The notes: a model not told the origin generated them from the sequence alone. A DNA stretch of 64,000 nucleotides from Acidimicrobiia bacterium (GCA_022828135.1 JAJEJB010000015.1:81484-145483); one strand, 5' to 3'. Shown: positions 8,470-60,447, counted from the stretch's first letter. Translations and numbers: made by a program.

Positions 8470-8602
8470 CTCAGAGGCCCAGCGGACAGGTGCGCGAACC
8501 CGGCTCATACGGGCGGGGCCGTGGCCCGAGCGGCCCGTGAGCGCAGCGAACAAGAGCGGGAATGACCCCGCTGCAACATGACCGATTCCCACCTATCCGC
8601 GC
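8470..8602 (+). repeat. Dispersed repeat family, copy 1 (long form, about 133 nt), intergenic between two co-directional minus-strand genes
   Basis: It starts TCAGAGGCCCAGCGG. It carries the core GGCCGTGGCCCGAGCGGCCCGTGAGCGCAGCGAACAAGAGCGGG at about 8517-8560. The right arm ATGACCCCGCTGCAAC...CCTATCCGCGC is shared with the copy at 23677-23807. Confidence 0.8.
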
Positions 8603-8608
8603 TCGCCC

Positions 8609-10162
<1,554 letters not shown>

Positions 10163-10215
10163 GCCCCAAGTATCACGGCCCCCCACCGAAATTCCTGTAG
10201 TTGGGAACGGAGCTG

Positions 10216-11784
10216 TCAGATGGCCGTCGCGTGGCCCTCCCAGTAGGGGTCCCGCAGCTTGCGCTTGTAGAGCTTGCCGTTGGGGTCGCGGGGCATCCCG
10301 GTGGTGTAGTCGATCGAACGGGGCAGCTTCTGGCGGCCGATGCGATCGCGCAGCCACTCCAGGACCGCCTTGGTGGTGCCGTCGCCGGGCTCCCATCCCT
10401 CCCGCAGCTCGACCACCGCCTTGATCTCCTCGCCCGTGTCGGGGTTGGGCACCCCGAACACGGCCGCGTCGCCCACCGCGGGATGCTGCACCAGCTCGCC
10501 CTCGATCTCCGCGGGGTAGATGTTCACCCCGCCCACGATGATCATGTCGTTGGCCCGGTCGTTGAGGAACAGGTACCCGTCGGCGTCGAGGTAGCCGACG
10601 TCACCCACGGTGAAGAACCCTCGCAGGCGGCTGGCCGCGGTCTTGGCCTCGTCGCCCTTGTACTCGAAGACGGCCCCCGGCATCTTCATGTAAACCGTGC
10701 CCGACTCGCCCGGCGGCAGGTCGTTGCCGTCCTCGTCGACCACGATCACCTCGCAGCCGGGCCAGGCTTTGCCGACCGTGCCGGGCCGGTCCGTCCACTC
10801 CGCGGCCGACACCGATGTGCCCCCGCCCTCGGTGGCCGCGTAGTACTCCCAGATGGAGTCGCCCCACCACTCGATCATGCGTCGCTTGGTCTCGATCGGG
10901 CAGGGGGCGGCGGCATGCACCATGGCGCGCAGCGAGGACACGTCGTAGCCCGAGCGCACCTCGTCGGGTAGCTGCAGCAGCCGGTTGAACATGGTGGGCA
11001 CCATGTGCGAACTCGTGACCCGGTAGCGCTCGATGCGCTCCAGGGCGCCCTCGGCGGTCCAGCGGTCCATGAGCACCACGGTGTGGCCCAGATGCAACGA
11101 CATCGTGGTCCAGTTGTTGACCGCGGTGTGGTACAGCGGAGCCTGGGTGATCTGGACGTTGCCGTCGTGGGGCTTGGAGCCGAACAGCATCAGCAGCATT
11201 CCCGCGGTGGACGAGGCCTCGTCGGGGGGCCGGGGATCCAGTGCCCGCCGCACTCCCTTGGGCCGGCCGGTGGTGCCCGACGTGTAGAACATGAACGACC
11301 CAGTGGCCAGCTGCTCGTGATCGGGCCTGTCGCCGGTGTGGCCCGCAATGAGTTCGTCGAAGGGTCGGAACCCCTCGACCGGCCCGCCTACGCAGAACCG
11401 GTTCTCGGTGGGCACGACACAGCCGTCGAGCGCCTTGACCGCCTCCTCGGCGAAGCGCTCATGAACGATGAACGCCTTGGTCTCGGCGTCGTTGACGATG
11501 TAGTTGATCTCCGCGCCCACGAAGTGCCAGTTGATGGTGGTCACGTACAGGCCGCTCTGGTAGGCGGCCAGGCAGAGCGCGAGCTGCTCGAAGCAGTTGG
11601 GCAGCAGGGTCGTGACCTGATCGCCCTTGCCGAGCCCGGCGGCCCGCAGACTCCGGGAGATCCGGTTCGTGAGGGCCGCCAACTCGCCGAAGGTCAACTG
11701 GCTGTGCTCGGGGTCGACCACCGCCAGGAAGTCGGGATCGGCCTCGGCGATGTTCCACAGCCCCAGGGCGTCGGTGTTTGCCAT
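10216..11784 (-). CDS. AMP-dependent acyl-CoA synthetase/ligase
   Basis: AMP-binding signature YTSGTTGRPKG, plus GDVGYLDADGYLFLNDR and a C-terminal PRDPNGKLYKRKL motif. Confidence 0.85.
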   Translation of the reverse strand: MANTDALGLWNIAEADPDFLAVVDPEHSQLTFGELAALTNRISRSLRAAGLGKGDQVTTLLPNCFEQLALCLAAYQSGLYVTTINWHFVGAEINYIVNDAETKAFIVHERFAEEAVKALDGCVVPTENRFCVGGPVEGFRPFDELIAGHTGDRPDHEQLATGSFMFYTSGTTGRPKGVRRALDPRPPDEASSTAGMLLMLFGSKPHDGNVQITQAPLYHTAVNNWTTMSLHLGHTVVLMDRWTAEGALERIERYRVTSSHMVPTMFNRLLQLPDEVRSGYDVSSLRAMVHAAAPCPIETKRRMIEWWGDSIWEYYAATEGGGTSVSAAEWTDRPGTVGKAWPGCEVIVVDEDGNDLPPGESGTVYMKMPGAVFEYKGDEAKTAASRLRGFFTVGDVGYLDADGYLFLNDRANDMIIVGGVNIYPAEIEGELVQHPAVGDAAVFGVPNPDTGEEIKAVVELREGWEPGDGTTKAVLEWLRDRIGRQKLPRSIDYTTGMPRDPNGKLYKRKLRDPYWEGHATAI

Positions 11785-22982: not shown

Positions 22983-23029
22983 GAGGCACTCTCCTCCATG
23001 ACCAGGCGAATCGACAGGCAGGGCTTCAT
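22979..23029 (-). other. 16-codon mini-ORF (MKPCLSIRLVMEESAS) bridging the LigD-pol stop and the LLM start
   Basis: Its ATG overlaps the LigD-pol TGA (ATGA). Its TGA overlaps the LLM ATG (ATGA). Its first 6 codons are a 20-nt exact duplicate of the LLM 5' end. Translation is unproven. Confidence 0.3.
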
Positions 23030-24192
23030 TGAGTTCCGTCCTCCTGTGGGTCGCGGGCCGCCCGGCTCGGCGCCACCCGGGGCGGCTCGTTGGGCATCTT
23101 CGGGTACACCGGCGGCCAGGGGGCGTCCATGAGGCCGGAGTCCATGTCCCGAGCGTGCCACTCCAGCAGCGGCTCCAGCGAGGCGGGCACGCCGTCCATG
23201 GCCGCCCACGGGTCCCCGACTTCGGCCACCCGGGCACCGACGGTGGCGATGGTCAGGTCCTCGGGCTGCACGTCGTCCAGTTCGTCCCAGCTGATCGGCG
23301 CCGATACCTGCGCACCGACCCGGGGGCGGGCCGACCAGGCACCGAACACCGTCTTGTGGGGGGCGTTCTGGTTGAAGTCCACGAACACCCGCCGGCCCCG
23401 CTCCTCCTTCCACCAGGCGTCGGTGATCAGGTCGGGCCGGCGCCGGGCCATCTCCCGGGCCAGGGCCACCGCAGCGGCCCGGACGTCGTAGGAGTCCCAG
23501 CGGGGCGCCAACCGGGAGTAGACGTGCAGTCCCCGCCGTCCCGAGGTCTTGATGTAGACGGTCATCTGCAACTCGTCGAAGGCGGCCTTCACCTCGCTGG
23601 CCGCCTCCCGCACCTGGTCGAAGCCGACGCCGGGCTGGGGATCCAGGTCGATGCGAAGCTCGTCGACTGCGGGACTGCCCGGATAGGCGGGAGCCGGTCG
23701 CGTCGCAGCGGTGTCATCCCCGCTCTTGTTCGCTGCGCTCACGGGCCGCTCGGGCCACGGCCTCGCCGTTCCAAGCCGTTCGCGTCCGCCTGTTCGCTCG
23801 GCCTCAAGGTCCGGGGCGTCGGCCCGGTAGGGCCAGACATGGAATCCGAGGCAGCCCATGTTGACGGCCCACACCACATGGGCGAGGTCGGTCGCCACCA
23901 TGGCGTTGGACAGGGTGCCGTTGGGGGTGCTCACCACTGTGGTCGTGAGCCACTCGGGGGCGCCCTTGGGAACTCGCTTCTGAAAGAAGGACTTGCCCCC
24001 CGCTCCGTCCGGGTAGCGCTCGAGCAGCACGGGCCGGCCCCCCATGGCCCGCAGCAGGGGCTCGGCCACCGACATGTAGTACTCGACGAGGTCGAGCTTG
24101 GTCTCGCCCCTGGTCGAGAAGAAGACCTTGCCGGGATTGGTGACCCGCACCTCGTGGCCATCCACCTCCAGCATCACGACGTCGGAAGCCAC
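23026..24192 (-). CDS. Stand-alone LigD-type NHEJ polymerase/primase domain protein, carrying an in-frame repeat-derived insertion of about 47 aa
   Basis: LigD-Pol motifs (VRVTNPGKVFF, LERYPDG, FFQKR, ELRIDLDPQPG, VYIKTSGRRGLHVY). Residues about 129-175 are encoded by the dispersed repeat. Confidence 0.8.
   Translation of the reverse strand: MASDVVMLEVDGHEVRVTNPGKVFFSTRGETKLDLVEYYMSVAEPLLRAMGGRPVLLERYPDGAGGKSFFQKRVPKGAPEWLTTTVVSTPNGTLSNAMVATDLAHVVWAVNMGCLGFHVWPYRADAPDLEAERTGGRERLGTARPWPERPVSAANKSGDDTAATRPAPAYPGSPAVDELRIDLDPQPGVGFDQVREAASEVKAAFDELQMTVYIKTSGRRGLHVYSRLAPRWDSYDVRAAAVALAREMARRRPDLITDAWWKEERGRRVFVDFNQNAPHKTVFGAWSARPRVGAQVSAPISWDELDDVQPEDLTIATVGARVAEVGDPWAAMDGVPASLEPLLEWHARDMDSGLMDAPWPPVYPKMPNEPPRVAPSRAARDPQEDGTQ
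23677..23807 (-). repeat. Dispersed repeat family, copy 2 (long form), inside the LigD-pol CDS and in frame
   Basis: The core is at 23719-23765 (reverse complement). The left terminus is TTGAGGCCGAGCG. The internal 29-nt segment and the right arm are homologous to copy 1. Confidence 0.8.
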
Positions 24193-26834: not shown

Positions 26835-28151
26835 ATGGCCGGGATGAACCGGCTGGCGGGTCGTTCCGAGACCATGGCGACGATCCTGGGGGCAACGCTC
26901 GTCGCAGTGCTGGTGGCTGCGGCCTGCAGCGGAGCCGAGGACACCGGCCGCGCACCCGAGTCCGACAGCCTTGGCGACGGCTCGCTGGGCACCGTGGAGG
27001 TGGACCCGGGCGACGCCGTCCAGATCCGCTCGCTCAACACCATCACCGGCGACGTCGCCTACCTCGGCATACCCAACCAGCGAGGCGTGGAGCTGGCGGT
27101 AGCCGACTTCGGCCCGATCCACGGCTTCGACATCGACCTCGGAACCCGCTACGACGACCTGTGCTCCTCCGACGGCGCCCAAGCCGCGGCCCAGACCATC
27201 GTGGCCGACGAGGACGTGATCGGCGTGATCGGGCCTTCGTGCTCGACCGCAGCCGTCGCCGCTTCACCCCTCATCACCGCCGCACACATGGTGCTCATCG
27301 CCCCTTCCAACACGTCGCCCACCCTCACGTCGGACCTGGCCGGCAATCCCGGCCTCAACCACAGCGTCGGGTACTACCGGACCTCCAACAACGGCCTGTA
27401 CGTGGGCGAGACCATGGCCCGATTCACATACGACGGGCTGGGCCTGACCACCGCGGCAGCCATACACGACGGTGACCCCTACTCGCGGTCGATAGCCCAA
27501 GCCTTCGCCGACAGCTTCGAGCGGCTGGGGGGCACGGTCACCGGGTTCTCGGCCATCAACAAGGAGGACACCGACATGGTGCCGGTGCTGACCGAGGTCG
27601 CCACCGGCAATCCCGAAGCGCTGTTCTTTCCCATCTTCCAGCCCGCGGGCGACTTCCTGACCGATCAGGCACCCGGAGTGCCTGGCCTTGAGGAGACGAT
27701 CCTGCTCACCGACGCCGCCCTGCTCAACGACGGCTTCATGTCGCTGCCGCAGTCGGCCGGCGTTTACTTCTCGGGGCCGGACCTGCGGTTCGGGGCCACG
27801 TCCAATCAGAGCACCGGAAAGACCCCAGGGAGCCTGCTGGACGCTTATGGCGAGATCTACGGTGAACCGCCCTCCGCGCCGTACTGGGCTCATGCCTACG
27901 ACGCCACCACTCTGCTGCTCGAAGCCATAGTGGCCGCGTCCGCGGTCGAGGACGGCACTCTGGTCATCGACCGGTCAGGCGTCAGGCAATACCTGGACTC
28001 GGTGAGCGGGTACGGCGGCGTCATCGGCACGATCAGCTGTGACAGTTTCGGAGACTGTGGCTCCCAGAAGACCACCGTCATCCACCACCTCGACCCTGAG
28101 GACATCGAGGCCAGCCTGGCCAACGTCGTCTTCGAGTTCGCCCCAGCGTGA
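26835..28151 (+). CDS. ABC transporter substrate-binding lipoprotein, LivJ / branched-chain amino-acid-binding (type 1 PBP) family
   Basis: Signal peptide with lipobox LVAAACSG. Type 1 periplasmic-binding-fold sequence (DVIGVIGPSCS, TAAAIHDGDPYS). Confidence 0.8.
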   Translation: MAGMNRLAGRSETMATILGATLVAVLVAAACSGAEDTGRAPESDSLGDGSLGTVEVDPGDAVQIRSLNTITGDVAYLGIPNQRGVELAVADFGPIHGFDIDLGTRYDDLCSSDGAQAAAQTIVADEDVIGVIGPSCSTAAVAASPLITAAHMVLIAPSNTSPTLTSDLAGNPGLNHSVGYYRTSNNGLYVGETMARFTYDGLGLTTAAAIHDGDPYSRSIAQAFADSFERLGGTVTGFSAINKEDTDMVPVLTEVATGNPEALFFPIFQPAGDFLTDQAPGVPGLEETILLTDAALLNDGFMSLPQSAGVYFSGPDLRFGATSNQSTGKTPGSLLDAYGEIYGEPPSAPYWAHAYDATTLLLEAIVAASAVEDGTLVIDRSGVRQYLDSVSGYGGVIGTISCDSFGDCGSQKTTVIHHLDPEDIEASLANVVFEFAPA

Positions 28152-29374
28152 GAAGACGCGCTCTGGCGGTGACGGCCGCGCTGGCGGTCTCCTCCACGCT
28201 GGTGTGGGGGAATCCGGTGGCCACGGCCCAGCAGGCCGTGCCGGACCGTGAGATCGAGGCACGCATCGGCGCACGTTGGCATGTCGACGGGCGCGTCGAG
28301 TTCGGGTTGCAAGTGCGCGCCGACACTGGCGAATGGGGCGAGATCCAGCAGCCGGCCAGGCGCTTCATGCCAGCGGGCCGCCGGAGCTGGCTGTCGACCT
28401 CGCGCTGGCTGTCGACCTCGCCGATCGCCCTCCGGGGCGCCGAGGCCCGCGTCGTCGCACGGCGACTCGCCGACGGCCGGGTCGAGGCCACGCTGAGGGT
28501 GCGCATCGAACGTGGGGAGTGGAGCGAGCGCTTGACCGAGCGGCGACGGTTGCTGACCGGGGGCGGAGAGATCGGCGTCTGGTATTGGTCGTCACCGGTG
28601 AGGCTGGCCGCACAGTGGGCCCAGATCGTCGCGTTCTACGGCCATCCCGGGGTTCCCTCCATGGGGGTGCTCGGCCATGGAACGCCGGCGGAAGTGGCCG
28701 AAGAGATCGCCGAATGGACAGAACGCTACGACCGGCTGAACGGACCCCGCGGCACCGTCGGGGCCTACCACCTCATCACCGGTGTCGCCCAGGCCAATCC
28801 GACATCGGACGGCACCTGGCTCTACCGGCTCCCCCACGACCGCATCGCCACCTATGTCGAGGCAGCCCGGGAGCACGGAATGCTCCTGTTCATCGACAAC
28901 CAGATCGGCTGGAGCGATCCCCTCTCGGAGGTGAAGCTCCTCGAGGACTTCCTGCGGGAGCCGTTCGTCCATATGGCGTTGGACCCGGAGTTCGCGACCC
29001 AGCCGCTGGGGGTCCGTCCGGGGCGGGCCATCGGCGGCATCACCGGCGAGCAGGTGAACGAGGTGCTGCTCTACCTCTCGGAACTGGTGGAGGAGGAGGG
29101 GTTGCCGCCCAAGATCCTGATGGTGCACCAGTTCGCCGACCGCATGCTGCACAACCGGGATGTCATCGTGACGCAACCCGGCGTCGAGCTGTCGATCGAC
29201 ATGGACGGCATCGGGAGCCCCCGGGCCAAGCTGTACGGCTACGAGCTCTACGCCATCACCGAACCCTCGCAACGTCCGACCTTCAAGCTGTTCTTCGACC
29301 AGGACGATCCACTGATAAGCCCCGAAGGGGTCCTGGCGATGGACCCGGTGCCCGACGTGATCATCTACCAGTAA
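28148..29374 (+). CDS. Secreted hypothetical protein: two N-terminal modules of about 40 aa (DGRVE...GEW) plus a C-terminal domain of unknown function
   Basis: Signal peptide MRRRALAVTAALAVSSTLVWGNPVATAQQ. The GTG start overlaps the upstream stop (GTGA). It contains an 18-bp perfect tandem duplication at 28386-28421. Confidence 0.6.
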   Translation: MRRRALAVTAALAVSSTLVWGNPVATAQQAVPDREIEARIGARWHVDGRVEFGLQVRADTGEWGEIQQPARRFMPAGRRSWLSTSRWLSTSPIALRGAEARVVARRLADGRVEATLRVRIERGEWSERLTERRRLLTGGGEIGVWYWSSPVRLAAQWAQIVAFYGHPGVPSMGVLGHGTPAEVAEEIAEWTERYDRLNGPRGTVGAYHLITGVAQANPTSDGTWLYRLPHDRIATYVEAAREHGMLLFIDNQIGWSDPLSEVKLLEDFLREPFVHMALDPEFATQPLGVRPGRAIGGITGEQVNEVLLYLSELVEEEGLPPKILMVHQFADRMLHNRDVIVTQPGVELSIDMDGIGSPRAKLYGYELYAITEPSQRPTFKLFFDQDDPLISPEGVLAMDPVPDVIIYQ

Positions 29375-29472
29375 GGGGCAGTCAGAGGCCGAGCGGAGCG
29401 AGGCCGTGGCCCGAGCGGCCCGTGAGCGCAGCGAACAAGAGCGGGCATGGCACCGCCGCACCGCGAGGCGGC
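29374..29472 (+). repeat. Dispersed repeat family, copy 3 (short form), bracketed by the 14-nt direct repeat ATCATCTACCAGTA
   Basis: The core is at 29399-29445. The left terminus TCAGAGGCCGAGCGG is at 29382. The flanking direct repeats are at 29360-29373 and 29473-29486. Confidence 0.85.
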
Positions 29473-29501
29473 ATCATCTACCAGTAGCGGCGCGCGTGCT
29501 C

Positions 29502-30293
29502 TCAGGTCAGCAGCAGTCCGATCTGTCGGGAGGTGGCGACCAGGGCGCCGGTCGAGTCCCATAGAGAGCCCGACTCGATCATCCGGCCGTCGTGAAGGTC
29601 GTGGCTCTCCTGGCGGACCTGGAGCCATCCCGACGCCGGCACCCTGCGGGCGTGGACGGTCAACTCGATGGTCGGCACCCAGCCGATGAAGCCCAGCAGG
29701 GGATACAGCGAGGGCGGCAGGGCGTCGGCGAAGAAGGGCAGAGCCATCGTGGACGGCGCCGAGCCGTCGTTGAAGCGGATCCAGCCGTCGATGAGCGCCT
29801 GATCGCTGCCTCCCGCGGGAGCATGGTCGGGATGCACGTGCACGTCCACCCGGGAGAGGATCGGCAGCTCCACGCCCTGCTCGAGGCTGCCCCGATGGAC
29901 GCACTGCTGCACCGGCGGGATCGCCGGCGGCGCCTCGGATATCTCCAAGCCGCGGCTGTTGCCCGACGGCAGGTCCGAGAAGGCGGCCAGCACCTCGAGC
30001 CGCTGCCTGCCCTCCTGCCAGAGTGATCCTCGCAGCGTGCTCACGGCGCGGCCGGCGCGGACGACCGAGGCCCGCACCTCGGCGTCGGTGTCGCCCTTGC
30101 TCGGACGGAGAAAGTGTGTGGTCACCGAGATCGGATCGGCCTGAGGTACCAGCGAGCGCATGGCTCTCAGCACCGATGTGAGCGCGTAGCCGCCGTTGCT
30201 GTTGTCCGCGATGTTCCAGCCGGCCGACAAGCGAGTGGCCCACCGGCCCTCGCCCACCGGTTCAACCGCCGTCTCGGCGTCGAACTGACTCAT
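29502..30293 (-). CDS. Thioesterase-family protein (double hot-dog, acyl-CoA thioesterase-like)
   Basis: A 263-aa product from the ATG at 30293 (MSQFDAETAVEPVG...). It resembles TesB-related thioesterase-superfamily proteins. The ORF-track 546-aa form is an over-extension. Confidence 0.6.
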   Translation of the reverse strand: MSQFDAETAVEPVGEGRWATRLSAGWNIADNSNGGYALTSVLRAMRSLVPQADPISVTTHFLRPSKGDTDAEVRASVVRAGRAVSTLRGSLWQEGRQRLEVLAAFSDLPSGNSRGLEISEAPPAIPPVQQCVHRGSLEQGVELPILSRVDVHVHPDHAPAGGSDQALIDGWIRFNDGSAPSTMALPFFADALPPSLYPLLGFIGWVPTIELTVHARRVPASGWLQVRQESHDLHDGRMIESGSLWDSTGALVATSRQIGLLLT

Positions 30294-58779: not shown

Positions 58780-59476
58780 ACCCTCCGGACGGCAGCTTCC
58801 ACCGGTGGGCGAGATCGACATCCTGCGCTGGGCCGAGAGCCTGGCCGGTATAGCCCAGACCGGCCTGGGCTTCACCGAGAGCCGCTACGAGCAGGAGCGC
58901 TTCGAGGAGGTGCTGGCAGTGGCCGCCGACATCCGGGCCCACAGTGCGGTCGGGATCGACGCGGACGAGCAGGTGCAGGACTGGCTCGGCGGCGTCGGCT
59001 CCGGCATCGCCGGATACGTCACGCCCAAGATCACCGTCGGTGCCATCGTCGGCGATGACGATGGCCGGATACTGCTTGTGCAGCGAGCCGACTCCGGCTG
59101 GTGGCTCTATCCCACCGGTTGGTCCGACGTGGGCTACTCGCCGTCGGAGGTCGCCGTCAAGGAGGTCCGCGAGGAGACCGGGATCGACTGCGAGGTAGTC
59201 CGCCCCATCGCCATCCTCGACGGGATGCGCCTCGGCTTCCACCGGGTGCCGCTGGTGTCGATCGTGTTCCACTGCCGCAGCCTGGGCGGGGATCTGAAGG
59301 CCCACCCGCTGGAGTGCTCAGACGTGGGCTTCTTCGCCGAGGGCGAGCTGCCCGAGCGCACCGCCCGCCCCGAGCTGTGGGCCCCGCACGCCTTCAGCGC
59401 CATCCGGGGCGAGCAGGTGGAAGTGCTCTTCGACCATCCCCGCAGTCCGCCTTGGCGGGGCGAGCCCGAAACCTGA
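58772..59476 (+). CDS. NUDIX hydrolase with a Nudix N-terminal helical domain
   Basis: Nudix box GWSDVGYSPSEVAVKEVREETGI. N-terminal GIAQTGLGFTESRYEQERFEEV. The GTG start overlaps the end of hemQ. Confidence 0.8.
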   Translation: MSEPSGRQLPPVGEIDILRWAESLAGIAQTGLGFTESRYEQERFEEVLAVAADIRAHSAVGIDADEQVQDWLGGVGSGIAGYVTPKITVGAIVGDDDGRILLVQRADSGWWLYPTGWSDVGYSPSEVAVKEVREETGIDCEVVRPIAILDGMRLGFHRVPLVSIVFHCRSLGGDLKAHPLECSDVGFFAEGELPERTARPELWAPHAFSAIRGEQVEVLFDHPRSPPWRGEPET

Positions 59477-59556
59477 GAGAGCGAGCTAGTTCTTCCCGCT
59501 CTTGTTCGCTGCGCTCACGGGCCGCTCGGGCCACGGCCTCGCAAGCTCGGCCTCTA
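59477..59556 (-). repeat. Dispersed repeat family, copy 4 (short form), filling the whole gap between convergent genes
   Basis: The core is at 59495-59541 (reverse complement). The left terminus TAGAGGCCGAGC contains the TAG stop of the PAC2 gene (59554-59556). Confidence 0.8.
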
Positions 59557-60447
59557 GCCGCCTTCGCGTAGGAACTTCTCGACCTCGGCCACCAGCCGGT
59601 CGGGGTCGTCGCTGAGGGAGATGTCGTCGCTGTCCTCATCCTGCCCCGCGTCCCAGGCTCTCTCGAGGCGGGCCACATACTCCGCGGTCTCATCGTCCTC
59701 GGCCACGATCCTGGTGATCTCCCGCTCGTAGGTCTTGGCCCGCTGCTCCAGATCGAAGGTCGGCACCGGCGCCTTCATCAGGGCACAAACCCGGTTGACC
59801 AGCGCCAGCGCAGCCTTGGGGGACGGCGCGGCCGGCATGTACGACGGCACCGCAGACCAGAACGACGCCGTGCGATAGCCGGCGTCGCGGCAGGCCGACG
59901 ACAGCACGCCCACGATCCCGGTGGGTCCCTCGTAGGTGGACGGCGTGAGGCCGAGCTCGGCTCGAAGCTCCTCGTCGTCGGTGGAGCCGTACACCTCCAC
60001 GTCGCGGCTGTGGGGCACCTCGGCGAGCAGCGCACCGAGAGTGACTATCCGCTCCACGCCCAGCATCCCGGCCAGAGAGATCAGCTGGTGGGTGAACGTC
60101 CGCCATCTCAGTTGCGGCTCCGTGCCGATCAGCACGACCGCGTCCGTGCCCGGGTCGTCCAGATGGGCCACCTGCACCTCGTTCACCGGCCATTTGATGC
60201 TCCGCGCTTTGCTCTCGTCCAGGTGAACGGTCGGACGGGCCGCTGTGAAGTCGAAGAAGGGCTCTGGATCTATCTCCGCCACCGGCACGCACCCCCAGCG
60301 ACCGGCCAGGTGACCGGCCGCGGTGGTGGCCGCGTCGCCGGCGTCGTTCCAGCCCTCGAAGGCCGCGATCAGGGTGGGGCGTTTCAGCTCGGGCCGCGGC
60401 CCGGACCACAAGACATGCTCTGGCTCGATTGACACGGGCGACACCAT
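59554..60447 (-). CDS. PAC2 (proteasome assembly chaperone 2-like) family protein
   Basis: The characteristic LIAAFEGWNDAGDAATTA motif and the typical size (297 aa). Confidence 0.8.
   Translation of the reverse strand: MVSPVSIEPEHVLWSGPRPELKRPTLIAAFEGWNDAGDAATTAAGHLAGRWGCVPVAEIDPEPFFDFTAARPTVHLDESKARSIKWPVNEVQVAHLDDPGTDAVVLIGTEPQLRWRTFTHQLISLAGMLGVERIVTLGALLAEVPHSRDVEVYGSTDDEELRAELGLTPSTYEGPTGIVGVLSSACRDAGYRTASFWSAVPSYMPAAPSPKAALALVNRVCALMKAPVPTFDLEQRAKTYEREITRIVAEDDETAEYVARLERAWDAGQDEDSDDISLSDDPDRLVAEVEKFLREGG

Follow-up and report, generated by a model that had tools for sequence, protein, structure and literature searches.

A MITE-like foldback family with a near-invariant 47-nt core in sponge-associated Acidimicrobiales, and a recent copy flanked by a 14-bp target duplication

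We analysed a 64,000-nt stretch of an Acidimicrobiia bacterium genome (GCA_022828135.1 JAJEJB010000015.1:81484-145483; hereafter the window, with positions counted from its first letter), which carries four copies of a dispersed repeat built around a nearly invariant 47-nt core. [quoted passage not shown] Canonical copies are bounded by terminal inverted repeats (TIRs) and duplicate CTNAG, or the TNA within it, on insertion. The focal copy (copy 3), at the 3' end of the gene ending at 29374, is a recent insertion that is missing from a relative with 98% protein identity, and the 14-bp direct repeat around it is a duplication of the native target made at insertion. We consider it probable that, within this CTNAG foldback family, the focal copy arose by templated copying from a resident copy and not by normal transposition.

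The focal copy and its empty orthologous sites

The initial annotation had reported a direct repeat of the 14-mer ATCATCTACCAGTA around one core and read it as a target-site duplication. The 14-mer occurs exactly twice in the window, at 29360-29373 and 29473-29486, with no occurrence expected by chance. As had been proposed, the left one is the end of the open reading frame (ORF) 28148..29374, which reads ...PDVIIYQ followed by TA of the stop codon. The locus is laid out as follows.

29360..29373, plus strand: left copy of the 14-bp duplication, the native gene 3' end (codons I-I-Y-Q and TA of the stop)
29374..29472, plus strand: inserted 99 nt, comprising AGGGGCAG, TCAG, the short left end AGGCCGAGCGG then AGCGAGG, the core at 29399-29445, and the inner right part to ...CACCGCGAGGCGGC
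29473..29486, plus strand: right copy of the 14-bp duplication, with the native spacer GCGGCGCGCGTGCTC and the convergent gene's stop beyond it

The convergent gene is thioesterase-like (4HBT_3), and its stop is the TCA at 29502-29504. All 120 of 120 database homologs of the 408-aa protein encoded by 28148..29374 end in (I/V)IYQ, at identities down to 56% and with metagenome-assembled genomes (MAGs) of Chloroflexi included, so the left 14-mer is native. The window was compared with its orthologs at three loci, L120 (98% protein identity), L121 (90%), and L122 (90%). In each, 12-14 nt separate ...GTGATCATCTACCAGTAG from the stop codon of the convergent 4HBT_3 thioesterase gene; each carries one 14-mer and none carries both. 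In the alignment, the window differs from the three orthologs by one clean extra block of 113 bp. Besides the insertion, L120 differs here at a single spacer base (window 29488), and the native spacer G(T/C)GGCGCGCGTGCTCTCAGG is common to both. Since the orthologs carry a single 14-mer and the native spacer, the 113 bp at window 29374-29486 are a genuine insertion accompanied by a 14-bp duplication of the target, which upholds the initial reading of the repeat. The insertion leaves the protein unaltered, converts its stop from TAG to TAA (TA from the target, A from the insert), and lengthens the spacer to the convergent gene from ~14 to 127 nt.

The boundaries of the focal copy depart from those of canonical members at both ends. 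Its insert opens with 12 extra nt (AGGGGCAG-TCAG) ahead of the usual first base (AGGCC...), and at a canonical locus those 12 nt would be flank plus duplication. The left arm is shortened. On the other side, the copy ends at ...GAGGCGGC, exactly where related copies go on with ATCACCTACCCGCG, the right arm, so that the distal right arm and right terminus are absent; an nhmmer family profile aligns to the copy over model positions 44-142 only. The flanking duplication is 14 bp, against 5 bp for canonical copies.

Two other readings of these boundaries were set aside. The left 14-mer resembles the right arm and might have been a remnant of an older element, a possibility ruled out by the 120 IIYQ-ending homologs and the single-14-mer empty sites. 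The sequence GCGCGTGCTCTCAG after the right 14-mer is not the right terminus of the element; it is native, being found in L120 without an element. AGGGGCAG may be a right-terminus fragment, as in a circle junction; the motif is not enriched near cores.

Two further observations concern this locus. At the empty sites L121 (3204-3225) and L122 (3282-3304), the spacers of 12-14 nt read TAGAGCCGCGGCGCCTCAGG and TAGAGGCGCCGCAGGCTCAGG and resemble element termini joined end to end (TAGAGGC...CTCAG), which may represent an old footprint or else a minimal relic. The 408-aa protein (28148-29374, plus strand) has no Pfam match and more than 250 homologs in Acidimicrobiia and Chloroflexi MAGs, and its sharing across phyla suggests a sponge-symbiont gene.

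Family anatomy, canonical insertion and spread

The presence of four 47-mer cores in the window was borne out, with none expected by chance, as were the shared flanks that start (T)(C/T)AGAGGCCGAGCG and the three GAGCGG boxes. Copy 3 is described above (core 29399-29445, plus strand); the other three are as follows.

8470..8612, plus strand: copy 1, canonical full-length; element 8475-8607 (133 nt), CTCAG at 8470-8474 and 8608-8612, core 8514-8560 (plus strand, 1 mismatch)
23668..23805, minus strand: copy 2, full-length and in frame; 138 nt, or 46 codons, in the LigD-type primase-polymerase gene 23026..24192; core 23719-23765 (minus strand)
59473..59557, minus strand: copy 4, short form; CTAG, AGGCCGAGCTTGCGAGG, core, GAAGAA, CTAG, then CTCGCTCTCTCAG; core 59495-59541 (minus strand)

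To define the layout of the family, we lined up ~250 copies. From left to right, these comprise CT(N)AG, a left arm AGGCCGAGCGGATAGGCGAG, an inner left segment, the core, an inner right hairpin in which the core's 3' end takes part, a right arm CTCACCTATCCGCGCnCGC, and CT(N)AG again. The inner left segment occurs in at least two long types, with the left end 64-65 or 74-76 nt before a 23-mer core probe, or as the short form GAGCTTGCGAGG. Canonical copies span 133-150 nt and have no coding capacity for a transposase. The arms, each ~25 nt, form imperfect inverted repeats around the core. The initial annotation had seen no terminal inverted repeats or strong hairpin and had judged the repeat not to be MITE-like; both statements are overturned by the full-length form, a TIR-bounded foldback with arms able to pair and a 5-bp CTNAG duplication.

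Arm structure was tested directly by pairing counts. In 26 type-A copies, the arms paired in 73% of cells, compared to 34-52% with the partner slid, and shuffle controls reached the observed level in 10-21 of 500 trials. A compensatory change occurs at pair 17-133, which is GC ten times and AU seven times. An RNAalifold consensus recovered neither the arm stem nor any covariation and was set aside, having missed the stem. Because of this result and the weak folding energies given below, we take arm pairing as a property of TIRs and foldbacks, which does not prove that a structured RNA exists. There are also mini-foldbacks that share these ends and have no core (L037, near-perfect, and L001).

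Sub-modules within or around the core form tandem arrays with periods of 20 nt (GCGGCCTGAGCGGCCCGCCC), 27 nt (GAGCGCAGCGAACAAGAGCGGGAGATG), 46 nt, and 71 nt, at L024, L116, L099, L093, L119, L112, and L152. L188 and L160 carry a core variant with a larger loop in its first hairpin (GAGGCCGTGGGCAGTGTC...TTGGGCGGCCC) in which the flanking stem bases are kept. A second, unrelated foldback repeat of ~60 nt, (G/C)AAATCTG...GGGT.TTGCC.CTATRTGACGGGTTTCTCTACAGATTTG, occurs four times, and in two of the four occurrences it interrupts a core element or a tandem core array. Its sites are listed below.

L029, ~3655, minus strand: second foldback
L083, ~7558, minus strand: second foldback
L216, ~1502 and ~5799, minus strand: second foldback

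A conserved gene 3' end, ...AAGTCGGCGCTCGGCCTCTGA, mimics the reverse-complemented left terminus without a core at L095 (minus strand, ~3397) and L017 (minus strand, ~1492); the likeness could be due to chance, or the sequence could be a natural one that is target-like or ancestral.

Canonical insertion was examined at copy 1, which lies between two minus-strand pyridoxal phosphate (PLP)-enzyme genes, antisense to both, and was compared with four orthologous loci (L127-L130). Three of these, L127, L128, and L129, are empty and read GACGACGA-CTGAG (or CTAAG)-CGTTACTGG...GTG, with a single pentamer where the window has CTGAG, the 133-nt element, and CTGAG. This 5-bp duplication at the copy 1 empty sites rules out a 14-bp duplication as the general rule for canonical copies. 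The upstream gene has its TGA stop within the duplicated pentamer, and the right CTCAG holds the TGA of gene 8609..10396. Many copies land exactly on stop codons and restore them, because TAA, TGA, or TAG-like triplets lie within CTNAG. Among left termini, 38 of 157 hold the stop of a gene-like ORF, as do 17 of the 73 right termini, compared to 3 of 149 in a control. Copy 4 fills the spacer between two convergent genes and provides the stops of both, TAG for a PAC2 gene (59554-59556) and TGA for a Nudix gene (59474-59476). A Logan short-read contig with an identical PAC2 protein (L251) stops inside copy 4, at L251 1281-1304, and the family therefore breaks short-read assemblies.

Approximately 12 of 203 copies (~6%) are embedded in frames that run open for 120 codons or more to either side and show coding-like GC content at third codon positions. 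Copy 2 is the clearest example, adding 46 aa to the LigD-type primase-polymerase (23026-24192, minus strand) with the frame open, a few residues before the catalytic DLD motif and at a point where solved homologs (6sa0) are contiguous. Orthologs at 87-89% identity keep a 46-aa insert there, while closer ones (93-96% outside the insert) do not have it. Empty orthologous sites thus exist for copies 1, 2, and 3; an nhmmer search of empty sites with a short-arm profile returned nothing usable. A single contig (ERZ25072196 ctg191044) that holds both L130 and L124 comes from a ~90% relative that shares the copy 1 and copy 2 sites, and relatives that are ~96% identical carry neither insertion. Sites shared with the more distant relative and absent from the closer ones point to recurrent insertion at the same CTNAG or to precise excision.

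A scan with the core 23-mer, one genome per species, found at least 119 loci, all in Acidimicrobiia MAGs. Hosts include Ca. Aldehydirespirator and Ca. Poriferisodalis, which belong to different families of Acidimicrobiales, and sponge 'SB06xx' bins. Joint Genome Institute (JGI) metagenomes contributed at least 120 further loci, for a genome and metagenome total of at least 239, and every named record with the family is assigned to Acidimicrobiia. Viral contigs, plasmids, and phages were scanned and held no copies. Literature on sponge Acidimicrobiia repeats, the core, CTNAG, and Poriferisodalis, a search that did not cover the genus Aldehydirespirator, yielded no description of the family, which is apparently undescribed.

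Origin of the focal copy and conservation of the core

All copies were searched for flanking direct repeats. Long duplications (14-42 nt) were found in ~6 of the ~250 copies; besides the focal copy, these are as follows.

L009: 14 nt, GAGTTCGCTTCCGC
L072: 14 nt, GCTGACGCCAGAGG
L247: 15 nt, GCCGCTGAAATCCGC
L219: 28 nt, a core cassette within a mini-foldback that lacks a core
L188: 42 nt, CGACGCG...CTGGGCGCTGAG

All long-duplication copies have non-canonical boundaries, with one side intact and the other truncated at differing points. The most informative case is L188, where replacement extends from CGACGCG (7 nt) to the CTGAG duplication, and CGACGCG is common to the canonical inner right arm and the L188 upstream flank. 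Two short homologies within one locus are what template switching predicts.

We infer that templated copying, by copy-choice or break repair with two template switches, is the most likely route for the focal copy. A growing DNA end that had already copied ...ATCATCTACCAGTA would switch to a resident element and copy it from its left flank to the start of the right arm. It would then return to the original template through the likeness of the right arm (ATCACCTACCCG) to the gene end (ATCATCTACCAG), and the 14-mer would be copied a second time. The insert would accordingly represent 99 nt of a resident member, with 12 nt of donor left flank and without the right arm, and the expected donor would read ...AGGGGCAGTCAG / AGGCCGAGCGGAGCGAGG...GAGGCGGC / ATCACC. 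At the return junction, the missing right arm and the gene end coincide at ATCA, with 4 exact bases and 10 of 12 matching over ATCAyCTACCmG.

Several results weigh against this account and against parts of the family description on which it builds. The short-left-end junction GGCCGAGCGGAGCGAGGCCGTGGCC of the focal copy had no match in JGI metagenomes, and no donor was found. The motif GGGCAGTC is no commoner near cores than in background; the origin of the 8 nt AGGGGCAG is unproven. The likeness of target to right arm reaches p ~0.02 at the focal site and is not significant for L009 and L072 (0.24 and 0.26); a general resemblance of targets to the right arm was accordingly dropped as weakly supported and is retained as a suggestion for the focal site only. 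Degenerate 14-mers around copies showed no enrichment. Four independent duplications of 14 or 15 nt hint at a fixed stagger, and hence at an enzyme. For canonical copies, the similarity of flanks of the same element over that of flanks of different elements is weak (p ~0.035), and folding energies are barely better than those of shuffled sequence (z -0.7 to -2.1). The 1.87 Mb searched around copies yielded no transposase gene whose ends match, so even canonical mobility is deduced from structure and presence/absence. The left half of the core is not conserved in two of eight further orthologous pairs, which are described below.

No transposase, integrase, or reverse transcriptase was found near copies. 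Candidate autonomous partners were also examined and rejected: an inverted pair at L069 encloses tlyA/ppnK-like genes, and other TIR-like pairs enclose housekeeping genes.

The core and arms have evolved differently at shared sites. The three genomes filled at the primase-polymerase site show identities of 89-94% in the host gene, 96-100% in the core, and 51-68% in the arms; the exception is one left arm at 97.5% beside a right arm at 51%. At the copy 1 site, L130 (a 91% ortholog) is occupied by another subtype, in an identical position and orientation, and the L130 core is mutated. The eight further orthologous pairs have flanks that are 85-98% identical and arms that are often only 57-69% identical. 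Low arm identity at shared sites fits either re-use of the site or replacement of arms by recombination between copies, for which the 47 identical bases may act as an anchor that allows arms to be swapped. Among copies found through the left arm, 71 of 92 have at most one mismatch over the 47 nt. The initial annotation had attributed the invariance of the core to very recent spread or to selection, and recent spread as the sole cause does not stand given the difference between core and arms at a shared insertion. The invariance is probably best explained by constraint, concerted evolution, or both.

In an alternative reading, the core is a domesticated functional site, primarily a functional RNA or a protein-binding site; the repeats would be kept for that function, and mobility would be secondary. 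Candidate roles are a small RNA, a stabiliser or terminator at mRNA 3' ends, or a site for a nucleoid or recombination protein. The contrast between core and arms at the primase-polymerase site and the low mismatch counts just described favour this explanation, as do the pairing of the core 3' end with variable downstream sequence in differing registers, the stem retained beside the enlarged-loop core variant, and the frequency of copies at gene 3' ends and between convergent genes. Against it, copies occur in both orientations relative to genes and also inside coding sequence, folding is not clearly better than for shuffled sequence, core sub-modules expand in tandem and are sometimes mutated, and no promoter-like or terminator-like signal was detected. 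Rfam covariance models gave no match on the window at gathering score, and at a permissive threshold (E up to 10) around a full copy gave one chance-level match only (E 4.8); in this check, which the initial annotation had envisaged, no Rfam family matches the core. We therefore regard a domesticated site as a possible but somewhat unlikely explanation.

The near-uniform length of several long duplications raises a second alternative to templated copying, namely aberrant insertion by the enzyme that mobilises canonical copies, which we would guess to be a DDE transposase working in trans on the TIRs. It would have used a tandem or circular form of the element, or a cryptic end, so that a shifted or permuted segment was inserted. 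A variant invokes a second enzyme with a 14-15-bp stagger. Three exact 14-nt duplications and one of 15 nt in independent copies fit this proposal, as does the TCAG directly before the canonical left end, as expected at a junction of right end, duplication, and left end. Head-to-tail elements that share T(N)A do exist (L012, L059, L110, L087, and L060), and in copy 3, L009, and L072 we read the missing piece as approximately the length of the duplication. Set against these points, each long-duplication case has element boundaries of its own, some duplications measure 28 and 42 nt, no transposase, integrase, or Cas1-like gene was seen adjoining any copy, and the canonical duplication is 5 bp, so that a second activity would be required. 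Insertion of this kind is unlikely in our assessment.

A dedicated copy-out mechanism that yields duplications of at least 14 bp, either target-primed reverse transcription resembling that of short interspersed elements (SINEs) or a guided integrase that works on an intermediate in circular or tandem form, seems very unlikely. If it were true, the CTNAG foldback would be the most successful carrier, and the 47 nt the recognition or catalytic RNA or DNA part of a new mobility system. RNA-mediated SINE-like copying, in which an element transcript that begins in flanking DNA or extends into it is reverse-transcribed at a nicked target, would account for one intact end (sometimes with donor flank), a variably truncated other end, and duplications of 14-42 nt, but it is highly improbable given that no reverse transcriptase is linked to the family, copies show no fixed end for priming (poly-A-like or other), the pattern occurs in only ~6 of ~250 copies, most copies are TIR-bounded with a 5-bp duplication, and L188 is fully accounted for by two short homologies within one locus.

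Significance and comparison with known systems

Sponge-symbiont MAGs are widely used, and because the family breaks assemblies, supplies stop codons, and adds in-frame peptides, one of them in a non-homologous end-joining (NHEJ) primase-polymerase near its catalytic motif, gene models and pseudogene calls near copies need care. The family also offers a natural system of filled and empty sites across many relatives in which to study stop codons as safe landing sites, a near-invariant centre, common to at least two bacterial families, between transposition ends that diverge and are exchanged, and repeats that seed templated insertions elsewhere in a genome. If an enzyme proves to drive the long-duplication events, the family would be a sign of a mobility mechanism not yet known.

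The closest parallels are bacterial MITEs such as Correia/NEMIS of Neisseria and ERIC/IRU of enterobacteria, which insert at or near gene ends. Like them, the family consists of non-coding elements of ~100-150 nt with imperfect TIRs and a foldback structure, a short target duplication that contains TA, tens to hundreds of copies, and presence/absence polymorphism, in intergenic positions that are often within or at the ends of transcription units. Unlike them, it duplicates CTNAG (5 bp, or TNA) and not TA, its most conserved part is the central 47 nt and not the TIRs, its arms are interchangeable, and a minority of copies have 14-42-bp duplications; it shares no sequence similarity with Correia/NEMIS or ERIC/IRU, and its hosts are sponge-associated Acidimicrobiales. 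Transposons of the IS5 family and PIF-Harbinger type that duplicate TNA are what we take to be a possible source of the mobilising enzyme. They share with the family a TNA-centred duplication in a CTNAG-like site and ends of the (A)GAGG/GGCC type, but the 1.87 Mb searched around copies lacks a transposase gene with ends to match.

Other systems resemble the family in single features. Rickettsia palindromic elements (RPE) are likewise palindromic mini-elements found in frame inside genes, to which they add a peptide with the ORF kept open; the family differs from them in sequence and host, is mostly intergenic or on stops, and has clear TIRs and a target duplication. REP/REPIN-RAYT systems comprise 20-40-nt palindromes, often in inverted pairs, together with a single-copy RAYT gene (IS200/IS605-like) flanked by them, whereas the family has TIR arms around a non-palindromic 47-nt core and a CTNAG duplication. 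The sequence adjoining copies showed no RAYT-like gene, and whole genomes were not searched for RAYT. Casposons use a Cas1-family integrase, have TIR-bounded ends, and produce a 14-15-bp duplication; copies of the focal type match them in duplication length alone, and the element ends vary between events.

Tandem repetition provides a last point of comparison. A MITE of Porphyromonas gingivalis is reported to contain a minisatellite (PMC4596501), and interior tandem units are also found in some copies here, at 20, 27, 46, and 71 nt; the two differ in phylum and sequence. The initial annotation had likened the repeat to MIRU-type elements, an analogy that holds loosely for stop-codon overlap, intercistronic position, and occasional tandem expansion, and not otherwise. 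MIRUs are mycobacterial tandem minisatellite units of ~46-101 bp without TIRs or target duplication. Both are repeats of Actinomycetota that lie between operon genes, can have ends over stop or start codons, and may occur in tandem, but the family described here consists mainly of single, dispersed, TIR-bounded foldbacks with target duplications and empty sites.

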